Shown piece after piece: positions 2,150-39,606 of a stretch of DNA of 64,000 nucleotides. Position numbers and translations under genes: made by a program. Numbering within the stretch: the stretch's first letter is position 1; every line of letters starts with the position of its first letter. This DNA is from a virus. Location of the stretch: positions 1 to 64,000 of IMG/VR virus record IMGVR_UViG_3300042330_000854; one strand, given 5' to 3'. Below the pieces are notes generated by a model. It was not told the origin of the DNA and ran no database searches. It saw only the letters and a program-made list of their open reading frames with translations.

Positions 2150-2485
2150 TTAATTTTGTAAAAACCATAAAACTCTTTCAGTTTCACTTAACCCAATTGC
2201 GTCAAAATATAAATCTGGATTTGGATGGTCTTTTAGCCATTGAGAAACATTATTATAATAATAAACATTATTTAAATAAAACCCACCTATTTTGTATTTG
2301 TTAATTCTAGCTGGCCCAATTAAACGATGATCAATTTGCCCTTTTAAACACCATCTTTTTTCACCAGTAGATAAATTTTCAAAAGCTGGTGTTTGTTCAT
2401 CTGGTGAAGAAATATGGTTCCAAGGAATTCTATTTTTATTATCGGTTGTGAATTTTTGCCCATCAATATAATATAAATATTTCAT
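2150..2485 (-). CDS. HRxxGPA-family dispersed paralogue
   Basis: YYIDGxKFTT...ISSPDE.TPAFE...HRLIGPA...HPNPDLYFD...LWFLQN. Confidence 0.8.
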   Translation of the reverse strand: MKYLYYIDGQKFTTDNKNRIPWNHISSPDEQTPAFENLSTGEKRWCLKGQIDHRLIGPARINKYKIGGFYLNNVYYYNNVSQWLKDHPNPDLYFDAIGLSETERVLWFLQN

Positions 2486-31197: not shown

Positions 31198-31341
31198 GCG
31201 GGCATGGGGGAACTTGGCAGACCCGACGTTCTCATTTCCAAGAAATAGGCAAGTATTATTTTAATACTTTCAGTGCAATTCTGATAGGAAAAACAAAAAA
31301 CGTTTCCAATAGGAGTGCGAGTTCAAGTCTCGCTGCCCGTA
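31198..31341 (+). tRNA. tRNA-Leu(CAA) interrupted by a 61-nt insert in the anticodon loop (about 31233-31293)
   Basis: GCGGGCA/TGCCCGT acceptor, ACGTT/AACGT anticodon stem, long variable arm, GTTCAAGTC; removing the insert restores ctCAAaa. Confidence 0.8.
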
Positions 31342-31491
31342 CAATAAATTATAAGAGCAATCTTATAATTTAGTTCTTTTAAATTGTTAAACTAAAGTAA
31401 TTTAGTACCTTAGACATAATTTAGCAACTGCTTGATTATGCATAGAACAGGTTCTAAGGTGACAATTAACTTTCTATGGTTAATTGATAAT

Positions 31492-31578
31492 GGGGAGATT
31501 TTTCTGACCCTGACTGTAAATCAGGTGGCGTTAAATATCAGAATGGATGCCGAAGAGGTTCGATTCCTCGTTTCCCCA
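31492..31578 (+). tRNA. D-armless 8/4 tRNA-Tyr(GTA)-like RNA
   Basis: CCTGA-ctGTAaa-TCAGG; GAGG-ttcgatt-CCTC; TTCTGA can pair with TCAGAA in the variable-arm loop. Confidence 0.7.
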
Positions 31579-31668
31579 CAATAAAAAAAGATTAAGTTAT
31601 TAACAAAAAAATTGTTGACAAACAAATCAAGATAAAGTAACGTAAGAATGTAAACGAGATAAGAAACT

Positions 31669-31770
31669 TTGATAGTAACCAGTTGGTAGAAGTGCTTTAC
31701 GGTAAAACATATCAAGTAGGAAATGACTTGAGTGCGTAAAGAAGCGGTGGTTCGATCCCATCCTATCAAA
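31669..31770 (+). ncRNA. tRNA-like RNA with the anticodon loop replaced by an extended arm
   Basis: TTGATAG/CTATCAA acceptor, AGTTGGTAGA D-loop, CTTTACG/CGTAAAG stem enclosing a TCAAGT/ACTTGA hairpin, GGTTCGATCC. Confidence 0.65.
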
Positions 31771-31954
31771 ATTTCTTAAATTGTTACTTGACTAAGTAAA
31801 TTAAATATAGTAAGTTTTATCATCAAATAACAAGGAGAAATAAAAATGGACATTTTTGGTTTTTACATGACACTTTGGCCCTTTTTTATTGAACTTAATT
31901 CAATGGGTCAAACGTATATTGACTTTTATCGTCAATTGCATTAATTTTAAACTT

Positions 31955-32039
31955 GGCCTCTGTCCCTCTCACGGTCTTCTAAACCGTCGTCATTAAAATG
32001 GAGGATGGATGACAATGGGTTCGATGCCCTCAGAGGTCG
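31955..32039 (+). tRNA. D-armless 8/4 tRNA-Arg(TCT)-like RNA
   Basis: GGCCTCTG/CAGAGGTC; ACGGT-ctTCTaa-ACCGT; CCTCT can pair with GGAGG in the variable-arm loop. Confidence 0.7.
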
Positions 32040-32930: not shown

Positions 32931-33001
32931 GCGGGATTAGCATAAAATTAATGTGCTTGGCTTCCACCCAAGATAAATCGGAGAGTTACCGATATTCCGC
33001 T
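32931..33001 (+). tRNA. tRNA-Gly(TCC)
   Basis: GCGGGAT/ATTCCGC, U73; CTTGG-ctTCCac-CCAAG; T-loop AGAGTTA. Confidence 0.85.
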
Positions 33002-33062
33002 CTTTAAAATAATAGTTGGTTTGATGATTTATCCTAATTTAAAATCATCGTTTATTTGGTGT

Positions 33063-33158
33063 GACGATTAACCACTTTGCAAAAAAGTTCATCTGCTGAA
33101 GAATAAGATAATGATCTTGGTAGTGCTTGATTAGTAGCAATTATCAAAAATAATCGTC
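33063..33158 (+). ncRNA. four-way-junction ncRNA, copy 1 (homologue at 39848)
   Basis: GACGATTA/TAATCGTC closing stem; shared ATGATCTTRGTRGYG.T.GATTAGTAGCAAT core. Confidence 0.55.
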
Positions 33159-33259
33159 CTCTGGTGGGGTGTATATTTATTAAAAATATTTATTTTTGTT
33201 GTCTTACATTGTGTTTTATGTAAAATTTGATAAATATATTTATGAAATTATCCGATTGG

Positions 33260-33627
33260 GTAAGAAAAGAAACCAATGATCAATTTTTTTAATTGGGATT
33301 TGGTAGAGGATTATTCCATGACAACTCGCAAAGTTTAAGTGCGCCGTTAATCCCATTAAAGAAATTTCTTTAATAAAGACAAGTAATAAAAATATATATT
33401 ACTTGTAACGGTGTATAGCAATATCCCTGGTTGATTAGAACCAAAATCTAATCACCATTATGGTTAGTAAATAAACCACTCGTAAGAGTTTTTCGTAAGA
33501 AAAATAAGATTATGACGAATTTTCAACTCGTTAGTAACAATAATCCTAAAAAATATTTACTGGCGGATGGTAGAGTTTACTCTACGATCTAGGTTGCTTA
33601 GAACCTTAATCTAAGCACTTTTCTTAC
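33260..33627 (+). ncRNA. large (~370 nt) structured ncRNA candidate
   Basis: Terminal helix GTAAGAAAAG/CTTTTCTTAC, internal GGATTATT/AATAATCC, many GNRA-capped hairpins; no ORF of 60 aa or more. Confidence 0.55.
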
Positions 33628-33714
33628 AGAAGATTATGAAAAATTGTAAAAAAACATATCCTCTGTAAAAAAATAGTTCTTGACAAAAAGAACTATAATT
33701 AATAATATATTTTT

Positions 33715-33800
33715 ATGCTTGGAGAGTAGAATACAGGGAAACTGGCCTTGGTGTTCCAAGGAACGCAAATCACAATTGGTTCAAATCCAATCACAAGCAT
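33715..33800 (+). ncRNA. T-arm-bearing tRNA-like RNA, copy 1 (homologue at 47739)
   Basis: TGCTTG-GAGAGTAGAATAC...ATTGG-ttcaaat-CCAAT-CACAAGCA. Confidence 0.6.
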
Positions 33801-33807
33801 AATTTAT

Positions 33808-33890
33808 GGACACAGTGATATCAGTGGTCAATATCAACGTACTTTTAATACGTCGCGTAAGCTTTCTTGGTTCAATTCCAAGTGTGTCCT
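33808..33890 (+). tRNA. tRNA-Lys(TTT) with long variable arm
   Basis: GGACACA/TGTGTCC; ACGTA-ctTTTaa-TACGT. Confidence 0.8.
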
Positions 33891-33941
33891 CTACAAAAAA
33901 TACTTGACAATAAATAAATATAATAGTAAAGTAAGTTTTAT

Positions 33942-34015
33942 TGCGGAGTAGAGAAAAAGACATCTCGCAGGCTTCATGCGCCTGAAATAGTTGGAGCGTT
34001 ACCAACCTCTCGCAT
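33942..34015 (+). tRNA. tRNA-Met(CAT)
   Basis: CAGGC-ttCATgc-GCCTG; T-loop AGCGTTA. Confidence 0.7.
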
Positions 34016-34021
34016 CTTTAA

Positions 34022-34111
34022 TGGCGCGTACTCTAATGGTAAGAGACAAGATTGTTAATCTTGCGTATTCCGATTTTCGGTATGTTGGTTCGATCCCAAC
34101 CGTGCTAGCCA
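34022..34111 (+). tRNA. tRNA-Asn(GTT) with long variable arm and encoded CCA
   Basis: CAAGA-ttGTTaa-TCTTG; GTTCGATC; ends GCCA. Confidence 0.85.
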
Positions 34112-34155
34112 ATATGTTAAAATAAAGTATATTCAATTACGATATATTTTAAATT

Positions 34156-34230
34156 ATCCTTGTGGTGTAGAAGTTAACATGTCAGTCTCCAAAACTGAAG
34201 TCCAGATTGCAAAATTCTGCAAGGATGCCA
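34156..34230 (+). tRNA. tRNA-Trp(CCA)
   Basis: TCAGT-ctCCAaa-ACTGA; ends GCCA; T-loop TGCAAAA. Confidence 0.85.
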
Positions 34231-34426
34231 TAAAAATTATTAATATAATTCAATATAGGAGATTAATATGACTGATAATACAAATGATTACAAAGATGAC
34301 ATTTCAGAAGAATATATTAATTTTTTAGAAAATAAATCATCCTATTTAGATGATGAAGAATGGGAATTAGTAGATTCAATGTAATTTAGTTATTGACATA
34401 ATTCAATAATTGAGTTATAATAATTT

Positions 34427-34782
34427 AAAGATTAGTTTCAGCAAAAATAATTATTTTTTTTTGATAAAAAACAAACACTAATCTGAAATATTTTAAAGTT
34501 TAAAGAATAGGTTCTGCAAAATTTCAAATTAGCAAAATCAGATTAATCCTCTGATACCGAGGTTTTATATTTCCTCATTAATATAAAATGTAAAAAACTA
34601 TTCTGTACTAATTTTCTTTTTAGTTGTTTAAAGAATGATTTCAGCAAAATTTAGCTTGGAAATGCAAAAAACATCATTCTGATTTATTTCCTTATATTAT
34701 ACTTTCTTATTTTATAGTTTAAAGGATGAGTTCCGCAAATTTTAAAATTTCAATTTTTGGTTTGAAAAACAAAATCATCCTG
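34427..34782 (+). ncRNA. array of four CxGCAAA stem-loop RNAs (34427-34485, 34502-34605, 34630-34681, 34721-34782)
   Basis: Each has tttAAAG-stem-TT.C.GCAAA-inner hairpin-stem-CTG with covarying stems; starts just after TTGACA-17-TATAAT (34393-34421). Confidence 0.7.
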
Positions 34783-34839
34783 ATTATCTCTTTATAGTTT
34801 AATAGTTTAAAATACTAGAGGGAACATTTTTAGTTTTAT

Positions 34840-34912
34840 TCCAGAATCTTCTAACTGATAAGAAACAAGAATTTGAGTCTTGGCAATGTAGGTTTAAATC
34901 CTACTTCTGGAT
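34840..34912 (+). tRNA. tRNA-Gln(TTG)
   Basis: TCCAGAA/TTCTGGA; CAAGA-atTTGag-TCTTG; T-loop TTTAAAT. Confidence 0.75.
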
Positions 34913-34964
34913 CACATAAAAAATAGTTGACATGTACCTAAATCCATAGTAAATTATTTTTATT

Positions 34965-35038
34965 GCCGTTTAAGCTAACTTTAGTAGAAGCGCTTGCATG
35001 AAGAGCAAGAGGACTTGGCGCGAAACCAAGAAGCGGCA
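34965..35038 (+). tRNA. tRNA-Phe(GAA)
   Basis: GCCGTTT/AAGCGGC; CTTGC-atGAAga-GCAAG; T-loop CGCGAAA. Confidence 0.8.
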
Positions 35039-35040
35039 CT

Positions 35041-35330
35041 TTAATCACAGCACAAATTAATATTTTGGGCAAATATTTATAAAATATTATATTAATTTGT
35101 TAAAACGCTCTTATTATCTAGGGCAATGTAGATGTAACAATGATGGTTAAAATCTTCTACCTGTGATTAAAACTCTTGACAAGAATGAAAATCAATGATA
35201 AATTATAATCATTAATTACTACAAAATTCAATGTTTTCGATTTTAGCTTAAATATTGAATTGTTAATAGCGTGAAGCAAAACGCAATGCAGATGTAACAA
35301 AGCAAACAAAATCTTCTGCTAGTAATTGAT
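35041..35330 (+). ncRNA. two homologous multi-stem ncRNAs (35041-35170, 35211-35330)
   Basis: Covarying terminal helices and shared TGTTAA.A.GC..GCAATGYAGATGTAACAA...AAATCTTCTRC. Confidence 0.6.
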
Positions 35331-35450
35331 AATTCAAATCAGATAGTGATTTGAAAGTTTATGGTGATAGTTTTCACGCGATAAACAAATATGCGGGCAT
35401 GGCGAAATAGCAGCCGCGACAAGTAAAAAATATATTTAAAATTATATTTT

Positions 35451-35592
35451 GCTCACGTATCCCAATCGGAAGAGGAAAACGACTCAATCCTGAGAAAAAG
35501 ACAAGTATTATTTAATACTTTCGGTGCAATTCCGATAAGGAAAAAAACAGAAAATCGTTTAGTTGTCGGTTCGAATCCGACCGTGAGTACCA
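35451..35592 (+). tRNA. tRNA (Phe GAA, or short-arm Leu CAA) interrupted by a 65-nt insert (about 35485-35549)
   Basis: GCTCACG/CGTGAGT-ACCA, AACGA/TCGTT anticodon stem, GTTCGAATC; insert homologous to that in the 31198 tRNA. Confidence 0.8.
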
Positions 35593-35604
35593 TTAGAGGA
35601 AAAA

Positions 35605-36087
35605 ATGACAAATAATAATGAAAAAACAATAGTTTCATCAAAAGTTTATAAAGATAAAAAATCTAAAAGATTAATACAACATATAAGATATTCAGATGGA
35701 ACAAGAAAAACACGTTCTTATCCAAGAACAATTATGGAAGAATATTTAGGAAGACCATTATTAGACGACGAAACAGTAGATCATATTGATGGTAATGTAG
35801 AAAATAATGATATTAGTAATTTACAATTATTGTCACGAGAAGAAAATGCCCGTAAAGGCGCTTTGGGAAATAAACATACATTAGGTCGTAAACAATCTGA
35901 AGAACATAAACGAAATGGTGCTAAAAACGGCCAAGCAAAATTAACAAATGAACAAGTAATTTATTATAGAAAATCTTATGAAGATAAATCTCTTACTAAA
36001 AATCAAATAATAGAATTAACAAACATGAGTAGGCCCGCTATTGAAAATATTTTAAATTACAAATCATATGTAAATACTAAAAACTAA
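35605..36087 (+). CDS. free-standing HNH homing endonuclease
   Basis: RTIMEEYLGRPLLDDETVDHIDGNVENNDISNLQLLSREEN; NUMOD3-like KQSEEHKR; AKLTNEQV. Confidence 0.85.
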   Translation: MTNNNEKTIVSSKVYKDKKSKRLIQHIRYSDGTRKTRSYPRTIMEEYLGRPLLDDETVDHIDGNVENNDISNLQLLSREENARKGALGNKHTLGRKQSEEHKRNGAKNGQAKLTNEQVIYYRKSYEDKSLTKNQIIELTNMSRPAIENILNYKSYVNTKN

Positions 36088-36223
36088 TTTAACCTAGGGC
36101 CAATGAAAGATTAATAATCTAAGGTTAAACATGCATTATGATAAATAATGTTGATCTGTGATCACGTAAGATGGTTTGGTGCGTAATGTAAATTACAAAG
36201 ATAATCTTTTCGGAGATTATTTT

Positions 36224-36295
36224 CGGGGTATAGCTCAGAAGTAGAGTGTTCGCTTTGGAAGCGAAAGGCCGAAATTGCAAAATTTTCTACCCCGA
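36224..36295 (+). tRNA. tRNA-Pro(TGG)
   Basis: CGGGGTA/TACCCCG; TTCGC-ttTGGaa-GCGAA; T-loop TGCAAAA. Confidence 0.85.
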
Positions 36296-39501: not shown

Positions 39502-39606
39502 TAAGTTAATTAGAAGTGGGCTTCCGTAGCGACGGCTATAGATTTTTGTTCGATTCAAAATTAAATCATGGATGATTAACGTGGTTCGATTCCACAATTA
39601 ACTTAA
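39502..39606 (+). ncRNA. tRNA-like RNA with two T-loop hairpins
   Basis: TAAGTTAATT/AATTAACTTA closing stem; TTTG-ttcgatt-CAAA and GTGG-ttcgatt-CCAC; follows a TTGACA..TATAAA promoter. Confidence 0.55.

Follow-up and report, generated by a model that had tools for sequence, protein, structure and literature searches.

Two genes of a phage genome fragment probably encode elongator tRNAs, one for tyrosine (codons UAY) and one for arginine (codon AGA), on a core that is not the cloverleaf. Neither has a D hairpin; in its place stands a short linker which, by the evidence of 16 aligned sequences, pairs with the loop of a long variable arm in a helix that is conserved and covaries. The two genes share one identical 8/4 scaffold and lie 376 nt apart in the window, that is, the first 64,000 nt (64 kb) of the IMG/VR record IMGVR_UViG_3300042330_000854. 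The cloverleaf counts as a universal feature of cytosolic-type tRNAs, and an alternative core, conserved and covarying and found widely among phages, would amount to a new tRNA architecture. Such a core would account for the "missing" isotypes of phage tRNA sets, which may seem missing because standard gene finders overlook rewired genes. It would also give a natural test of what synthetases, EF-Tu, RNase P and the ribosome need of the tRNA core, and would offer a new chassis for tRNA engineering. These possibilities are directly testable in two cultured systems, phiAB441 with Acinetobacter baumannii and crAss001 with Bacteroides intestinalis.

Anatomy of the two genes

The elements of the Tyr and Arg genes are listed below.

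31492..31578, + strand, candidate rewired tRNA-Tyr(GUA) gene, 87 nt; discriminator A31578; no encoded CCA
31492..31499, + strand, Tyr acceptor 5' strand; 8 bp with 31570-31577, two of them G·U
31502..31507, + strand, 5' strand TTCTGA of the Tyr long-range helix; exact complement of TCAGAA at 31538-31543
31509..31525, + strand, Tyr anticodon arm CCTGA-CTGTAAA-TCAGG; strands 31509-31513/31521-31525, anticodon GTA at 31516-31518
31527..31551, + strand, Tyr variable hairpin; GGCGT pairs with ATGCC around the 15-nt loop TAAATA-TCAGAA-TGG, whose TCAGAA (31538-31543) is the 3' strand of the long-range helix
31555..31569, + strand, Tyr T arm GAGG-TTCGATT-CCTC; 4 bp, 31555-31558/31566-31569, T loop TTCGATT
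31955..32039, + strand, candidate rewired tRNA-Arg(UCU) gene, 85 nt; discriminator G32039; no encoded CCA
31955-31962/32031-32038, + strand, Arg acceptor; 8 bp, one of them G·U
31965..31969, + strand, 5' strand CCTCT of the Arg long-range helix; pairs with GGAGG at 32000-32004 by four Watson-Crick pairs and one G·U
31971..31987, + strand, Arg anticodon arm ACGGT-CTTCTAA-ACCGT; strands 31971-31975/31983-31987, anticodon TCT at 31978-31980
31989..32013, + strand, Arg variable hairpin; GTCAT pairs with ATGAC around the 15-nt loop TAAAAT-GGAGG-ATGG, whose GGAGG (32000-32004) is the 3' strand of the long-range helix
32016..32030, + strand, Arg T arm TGGG-TTCGATG-CCCT; 32016-32019/32027-32030, 3 bp and an outer U·U

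In the Tyr gene the position of the D arm holds 9 nt only (31500-31508). The strand TTCTGA follows the acceptor after two nucleotides (connector TT), stops one nucleotide (C) short of the anticodon stem, and falls in the alignment into the columns of the covarying Arg helix. The corresponding Arg linker consists of 8 nt, namely the connector TC, CCTCT and a C. A hairpin is impossible in 8-9 nt, and neither gene has one there. The variable hairpin is separated from the T arm by GAA in the Tyr gene and by AA in the Arg gene. Both genes have a 12-bp acceptor and T branch, a T loop, and an anticodon loop of 7 nt in which position 33 is U and position 37 a purine; the Tyr loop CTGTAAA carries U33, A37 and A38. 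The anticodon loops CUUCUAA and CUGUAAA are those of E. coli argU and tyrT. The outer pair of the T stem is U·U in the window Arg gene and G-C or A-U in the other 15 sequences of the alignment.

A sequence-only reading of this stretch had described perfect anticodon arms, 8-bp acceptors and 3-4-bp T stems in both RNAs, all of which the sequence bears out, as well as a frame TTAAA...ATGGATG, which is found in both genes. The complementarity that it saw between linker and variable-arm loop is exact for TTCTGA/TCAGAA and holds, with the G·U pair, for CCTCT/GGAGG. It was right in that a short stretch without a D hairpin replaces the D arm, while its estimate of about 7 nt gives way to linkers of 8-9 nt; the 3' end of the Tyr gene is corrected to 31578.

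Standard tools respond poorly to these genes. ARAGORN called neither of them. Against RF00005 (threshold 29 bits) the Tyr gene reached 22.1 bits and the Arg gene had no match at E<=0.1, and against the tRNA-Sec model RF01852 (threshold 47 bits) the two scored 32.3 and 25.7 bits, respectively. The covariance model R1 described below gives 75.9 bits for Tyr and 93.2 bits for Arg, values that are high by construction since both genes are in its seed. Folding by minimum free energy (MFE), restricted to nested pairs, recovered the Tyr layout, including the variable hairpin with the frame common to the Arg family, and did not recover the Arg layout. The z-scores were weak (-1.6 to -1.9), which is expected because the method is blind to pseudoknots.

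Homologues and covariation of the long-range helix

IMG/VR and the JGI metagenomes were scanned for homologues with a pattern made up of the variable-arm frame and the T loop only. The matches were filtered on the four nested stems only, and long-range pairing played no part in their selection. This yielded 11 distinct further sequences, all with a CTTCTAA/C loop (Arg UCU), from which, together with the window genes, we built R1; window Tyr and Arg are both in the seed alignment. R1 added one further locus (L058), a copy in L024 that is truncated at its 5' end, and a gene of the cultured Acinetobacter phages phiAB441 and MD-2021a, neither of which has an annotation at that place. The total thus came to 14 further Arg(UCU) homologues from unrelated phages and metagenomes, and 16 sequences were aligned including both window genes. 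The carriers have GC contents of 33-49% and include complete genomes.

The long-range helix was found to be paired in 80/80 cells across the 16 sequences, and pairing was also 100% in the first 13. In four of its five pairs both partners have changed, and a single position shows as many as four types of pair. The strand pairs of the homologues include CCTCT/AGAGG, CCCGC/GCGGG, CCACC/GGTGG, CCTCC/GGAGG, CCCAC/GTGGG, CCCTC/GAGGG, CCTAC/GTAGG and CCGGC/GCCGG, beside TTCTGA/TCAGAA in window Tyr. None of 500 shuffles (0/500) reached the observed values, and sliding the partner strand along reduced pairing to 41-48%. Since the homologues were chosen without regard to this helix and yet are paired throughout, the pairing goes beyond chance. 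The acceptor, anticodon, variable and T stems covary as well, and judged by its pairing, its compensatory changes and the shuffle and sliding tests, the long-range helix is supported as well as these classical stems. The pseudoknot that the sequence-only reading had proposed in place of the D arm, and its argument for a selected fold, are upheld by these results; the covariance-model search that it suggested found homologues, and these covary.

The 8/4 geometry is present in both window genes and in all Arg homologues; the eighth acceptor pair is G-C in 14/15 sequences, and the T stem abuts it directly. The connector between acceptor and long-range strand measures exactly two nucleotides in all members, and both window genes follow it, as R1 does, with a 5-6-nt strand pairing with the variable loop, after which comes A-U-G-G. 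CTTCTAA forms the anticodon loop in 15 of the 16 aligned members, one of them with C38, window Tyr being the exception, and this loop is constant while the acceptor stems are wholly different between copies. A CCA is encoded after the discriminator in 11/14 Arg homologues (it is absent in L109 and L058, and was not read in L114), and the discriminators of the Arg family vary among U, A, G and C. The T loop begins with UUCGA or UUCAA in all Arg-scaffold members except that of phiAB441, and in the crAss-type Tyr genes described below.

The copy in phiAB441 (L255 4000-4084, equal to PV420835.1 60358-60442) is unannotated there and is the sole tRNA-like gene of a complete 88-kb genome. Its T loop is the swapped ATCGTTA, with A54/U58 instead of T54/A58 and with U55, C56 and G57 kept, and its variable stem is weakened. 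The copy has a promoter of its own, TTGACA-17-CATTAT, and about 20 nt downstream lies an endonuclease gene. A separate observation concerns L024, where, 26 nt downstream of the Arg(UCU) gene (2160-2213, minus strand), we noted a tRNA-like RNA of ~54-60 nt in which the anticodon loop has CAT, the T arm is canonical, CCA is encoded and no more than ~3 nt stand in the place of the D arm.

No family member was present among the first 120 pattern matches listed from bacterial and archaeal genome contigs. When compared with the phage collection by blastn, the 4.5-kb array of the window and the L007 copy gave no match, and window Tyr gave chance matches of T-arm size only. A search of IMG/VR for relatives of the window phage through a neighbouring amidoligase found none. 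A conserved neighbouring protein was sought across the carrier loci, and none was common to more than three; no shared neighbour hints at a dedicated partner protein.

The neighbourhoods also bear on whether the RNAs could be tRNA-like processing or leader elements rather than adaptors, serving as RNase P punctuation or as the leader of a downstream mobile endonuclease mRNA. An endonuclease-like open reading frame does start 22-66 nt downstream in L007, L114 and phiAB441. There is no such frame after either window gene, however, no neighbour is common to all carriers, and a processing signal needs no fixed anticodon, so that we consider a role of this kind very unlikely.

DNA of a strain variant was present in metagenome contigs. 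The piece that covers the Tyr gene has 9 differences, of which 4 are listed by place: three are in the 70 nt upstream, and one, 31497 G>A, is in the gene and turns an acceptor G·U into A-U. The piece covering most of the Arg gene (to 32021) has one difference, in the unpaired connector. Neither in-gene variant disrupts a helix. The rejection of both genes by gene finders and the mismatch in the T stem of window Arg are what decaying tRNA pseudogenes with fortuitous complementarity might show. Against this, every helix has compensatory changes in 16 sequences from unrelated phages, and in the strain variant the genes have changed less than their flanks. The covariation effectively refutes decay, which we regard as scarcely credible.

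A second family in crAss-like phages

A weak R1 match was seen in the tRNA array of crAss001 (MH675552.1 4141-4235), inside an unannotated gap of 170 nt. The gene found there is a 7/5 tRNA-Tyr(GUA) in which the connector TA is followed by ACATCA, running into the anticodon stem, and TGATGT lies within a 26-nt variable loop, followed by AATGGA. Contigs of crAss-like phages in IMG/VR carry the variants ACGGCA/TGCCGT and ACGGC/GTCGT, again followed by (A)ATGGA, showing that this helix covaries too. The crAss-type Tyr genes are 7/5 with a loop of 25-26 nt, whereas window Tyr is 8/4 with a loop of 15 nt and has the UUAAA..AUGGAUG frame of the Arg type. Since this 7/5 Tyr family exists besides the Arg-type 8/4 one, the design occurs on at least two scaffolds. 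Window Tyr is 67% identical to the nearest Arg copy and 62% identical to the crAss001 Tyr gene. A dedicated pattern for other Tyr genes with the Arg-type frame gave 62 stretches in IMG/VR, none of them (0) tRNA-like.

Genomic context and codon usage

The record from which the window is taken measures 108,076 bp with 26.6% GC, and CheckV estimates it to be about 33% complete; a genome of which 108,076 bp is ~33% is probably that of a jumbo phage. It encodes a large terminase, a DnaB helicase, a primase and a 5'-3' exonuclease, and DNA of the virus occurs in lake-water metagenomes. The genetic code looks standard. Alternative codes were considered and rejected, as the lengths of open reading frames were no better with TGA or TAG read through.

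The Tyr and Arg genes belong to a loose tRNA array at ~31-49 kb, many genes of which are aberrant. RF00005 and ARAGORN together find at least 18 other tRNAs in the 108-kb fragment, covering at least 16 amino acids and including Arg(ACG), and they find no other Tyr or Arg(UCU)/AGA-reading tRNA in it. AGA is the commonest Arg codon of the fragment (41%), and Tyr makes up 5.1% of all codons. A canonical Tyr or Arg(UCU) gene could be present elsewhere in the genome, since the fragment is only ~33% of its estimated length. A scan for promoters and terminators showed no clear transcription unit for the Tyr or the Arg gene.

Codon usage is also relevant to the idea that the RNAs are charged with a non-cognate amino acid, for instance with serine by way of the long variable arm, in the manner of allo-tRNAs, so that AGA or UAY would be recoded in phage proteins. 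The combination of 8/4 and a long variable arm is the signature of allo-tRNAs (Mukai et al., PMC5389517), and a long variable arm is odd on Arg, a class I isotype. The arm, however, would be locked in the pseudoknot and not free, AGA is the main Arg codon at a normal frequency, and the lengths of open reading frames show no changed code. Window Tyr moreover carries G1-C72 and A73, the identity elements of bacterial TyrRS. Taken together, these points make non-cognate charging highly improbable.

Other unusual RNAs of the array

Several further elements of the window (all + strand) were noted in passing. At 31672-31770, between the Tyr and Arg genes, lies a third odd tRNA-like RNA, called by no finder. 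Its acceptor TTGATAG/CTATCAA has 7 bp, and its canonical T arm has 5 bp and the loop TTCGATC; AGTTGGTAGA resembles a D loop, but no clear D stem goes with it, and a 7-bp stem CTTTACG/CGTAAAG surrounds a 33-nt insert with its own hairpin. An 8/4 tRNA-like RNA at 39504-39599 (AGTTAATT/AATTAACT, T arm GTGG-TTCGATT-CCAC) scores only 14.9 bits with R1. The RNA has the frame in a shortened form, TTAAATC-ATGGATG, and contains a further hairpin, TTTTG-TTCGATT-CAAAA, that resembles a T arm; it may be related to the rewired scaffold, either as a degenerate form or as a different one.

Two tRNAs at 31198-31342 and 35451-35592, called Leu-CAA by ARAGORN when introns are allowed, have homologous anticodon-loop inserts of ~61-69 nt, a length well below that of group I or II introns. 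At 34427-34782, downstream of a TTGACA-17-TATAAT promoter, four small stem-loop RNAs stand in tandem; their terminal stems covary, and they have a TTC-GCAAA strand in common. A 32-codon open reading frame with a strong AAGGAG ribosome-binding site, coding for a hydrophobic peptide, occupies 31847-31945 directly upstream of the Arg gene. The T loops of many cloverleaf tRNAs at 32931-36295 lack TTC, those of Trp and Pro, for example, being TTGCAAAAT, whereas GGTTCGAT is retained in the two rewired tRNAs of the same phage.

Proposed architecture and function

In the fold that we propose, the 8-bp acceptor would stack on the 4-bp T stem to give the usual 12-bp acceptor branch, and the two connector nucleotides would stand as U8 and N9 of a normal tRNA. 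The next 5-6 nt would open no D hairpin and would be continuous with the 5' strand of the anticodon stem. Since their partner strand comes after the anticodon arm, inside the loop of the 5-bp variable hairpin, the result would be an H-type pseudoknot. Its helix presumably stacks on the anticodon stem. Two forms of the junction are seen, either no spacer with a 6-bp anticodon stem or one mismatched layer with a 5-bp stem, and anticodon stem, mismatch layer and helix would add up to a constant 11 layers. The normal anticodon/D stack has 10 layers (5 + 1 + 4). A stack of 11 layers would thus place the long-range helix where the D stem normally is, with the connectivity of its strands swapped: the linker would occupy the place of D-stem strand 22-26, and the loop strand, running away from the anticodon, that of strand 10-13. 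The invariant A-U-G-G after the loop strand could supply the G18/G19 that contact the T loop. Taken as a whole, the D/anticodon domain would be circularly permuted, with the 5-bp variable stem closing it. Such a pseudoknot should, we reason, be sterically feasible with 2-3 nt before the T stem. The RNAs would be L-shaped, charged by TyrRS and ArgRS, and used by the ribosome.

It is most likely that the Tyr and Arg genes are working decoders. Several observations on the sequences argue for real decoding: the canonical anticodon loops are fixed though the acceptor stems of the copies are unrelated, the 12-bp acceptor branch is present, and CCA is encoded in most of the homologues. Moreover, phiAB441 has no other tRNA-like gene and the window fragment no other reader of Tyr or AGA codons, the frequencies of both in the fragment imply a need for such readers, and the strain variants leave the helices intact. 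Counting against decoding are the weakened T stem of window Arg with its U·U, the lack of an encoded CCA in the window genes, and the varying discriminators of the Arg family. The D-loop A20 is an identity element for E. coli ArgRS. It has no obvious counterpart in the rewired Arg gene, and this too counts against decoding.

The RNAs might instead act outside translation, as tRNA mimics whose perfect Tyr or Arg(UCU) anticodon arm soaks up host anticodon nucleases or other tRNA-targeting defences. Their anticodon loops are exact and invariant, as a decoy would require. Phage tRNAs are known to counter tRNA-cleaving defences, as T5 tRNA-Tyr does with the PtuAB of retron Eco7 (PMC11555353). That phiAB441 keeps this gene as its only tRNA-like one would also fit. 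A decoy, however, needs no covarying 8-bp acceptor, 12-bp branch, canonical T loop or CCA, all of which are conserved. The phage tRNAs of the T5/retron Eco7 study are, furthermore, reportedly working tRNAs rather than inert decoys. We therefore think it distinctly unlikely that the RNAs serve as decoys, and favour decoding by both genes.

What the phages gain from rewiring can be suggested only with low confidence; one candidate is evasion of defence nucleases or other host enzymes that act by recognising a normal tRNA body. A fuller proposal holds that the permuted D/anticodon domain still gives an L-shaped adaptor accepted by synthetases, EF-Tu and the ribosome, and that phages keep a portable Tyr/Arg scaffold in order to escape host enzymes recognising the tRNA body, for example the anticodon nucleases of defence systems. 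In this complete form it is speculative and rather unlikely to hold.

Comparison with known RNAs

The architecture is not described in the literature that we searched, and we rate the rewired core as a putative new architectural variant of tRNA. With canonical tRNA-Arg(UCU) and class II tRNA-Tyr(GUA) the window genes share the 12-bp branch, the T loop, the 7-nt anticodon loops and the discriminator, and in addition the CCA, present in most homologues, and, for Tyr, the long variable arm. They differ in that they have no D hairpin and that one strand of the D stem comes after the anticodon arm, giving a predicted pseudoknot; they are 8/4 instead of 7/5, and a long variable hairpin is found on Arg, a class I isotype.

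The window genes match the tRNA-Sec model (RF01852) in part, and are set apart from tRNA-Sec by the anticodons GUA and UCU in place of UCA and by the lack of a 6-bp D stem. The (8/4) allo-tRNAs and tRNA-Sec-like RNAs of Mukai et al. (PMC5389517) resemble the window RNAs in their 8/4 count, their long variable arm and their presence in phages; that paper makes no mention of a pseudoknot and refers to the D arm once, in passing. A comparison with allo-tRNAs, also suggested at the outset, therefore holds for the 8/4 count and the long variable arm and fails for the D arm, which allo-tRNAs and tRNA-Sec keep. The anticodons of the window are those of Tyr and Arg, and where the long variable arm of allo-tRNAs is free, the variable loop is here engaged in a covarying long-range helix.

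The D-armless tRNAs of metazoan mitochondria share with the window RNAs the absence of a D hairpin and a short connector between acceptor and anticodon arm (PMC7609411). The mitochondrial connector is flexible and forms no pairs, and the RNA is reduced in length and works with specialised factors. In the window RNAs, by contrast, the connector is part of a conserved 5-6-bp helix, the variable arm is enlarged, and the RNA, at 85-87 nt, is longer than normal and encoded in a phage genome.
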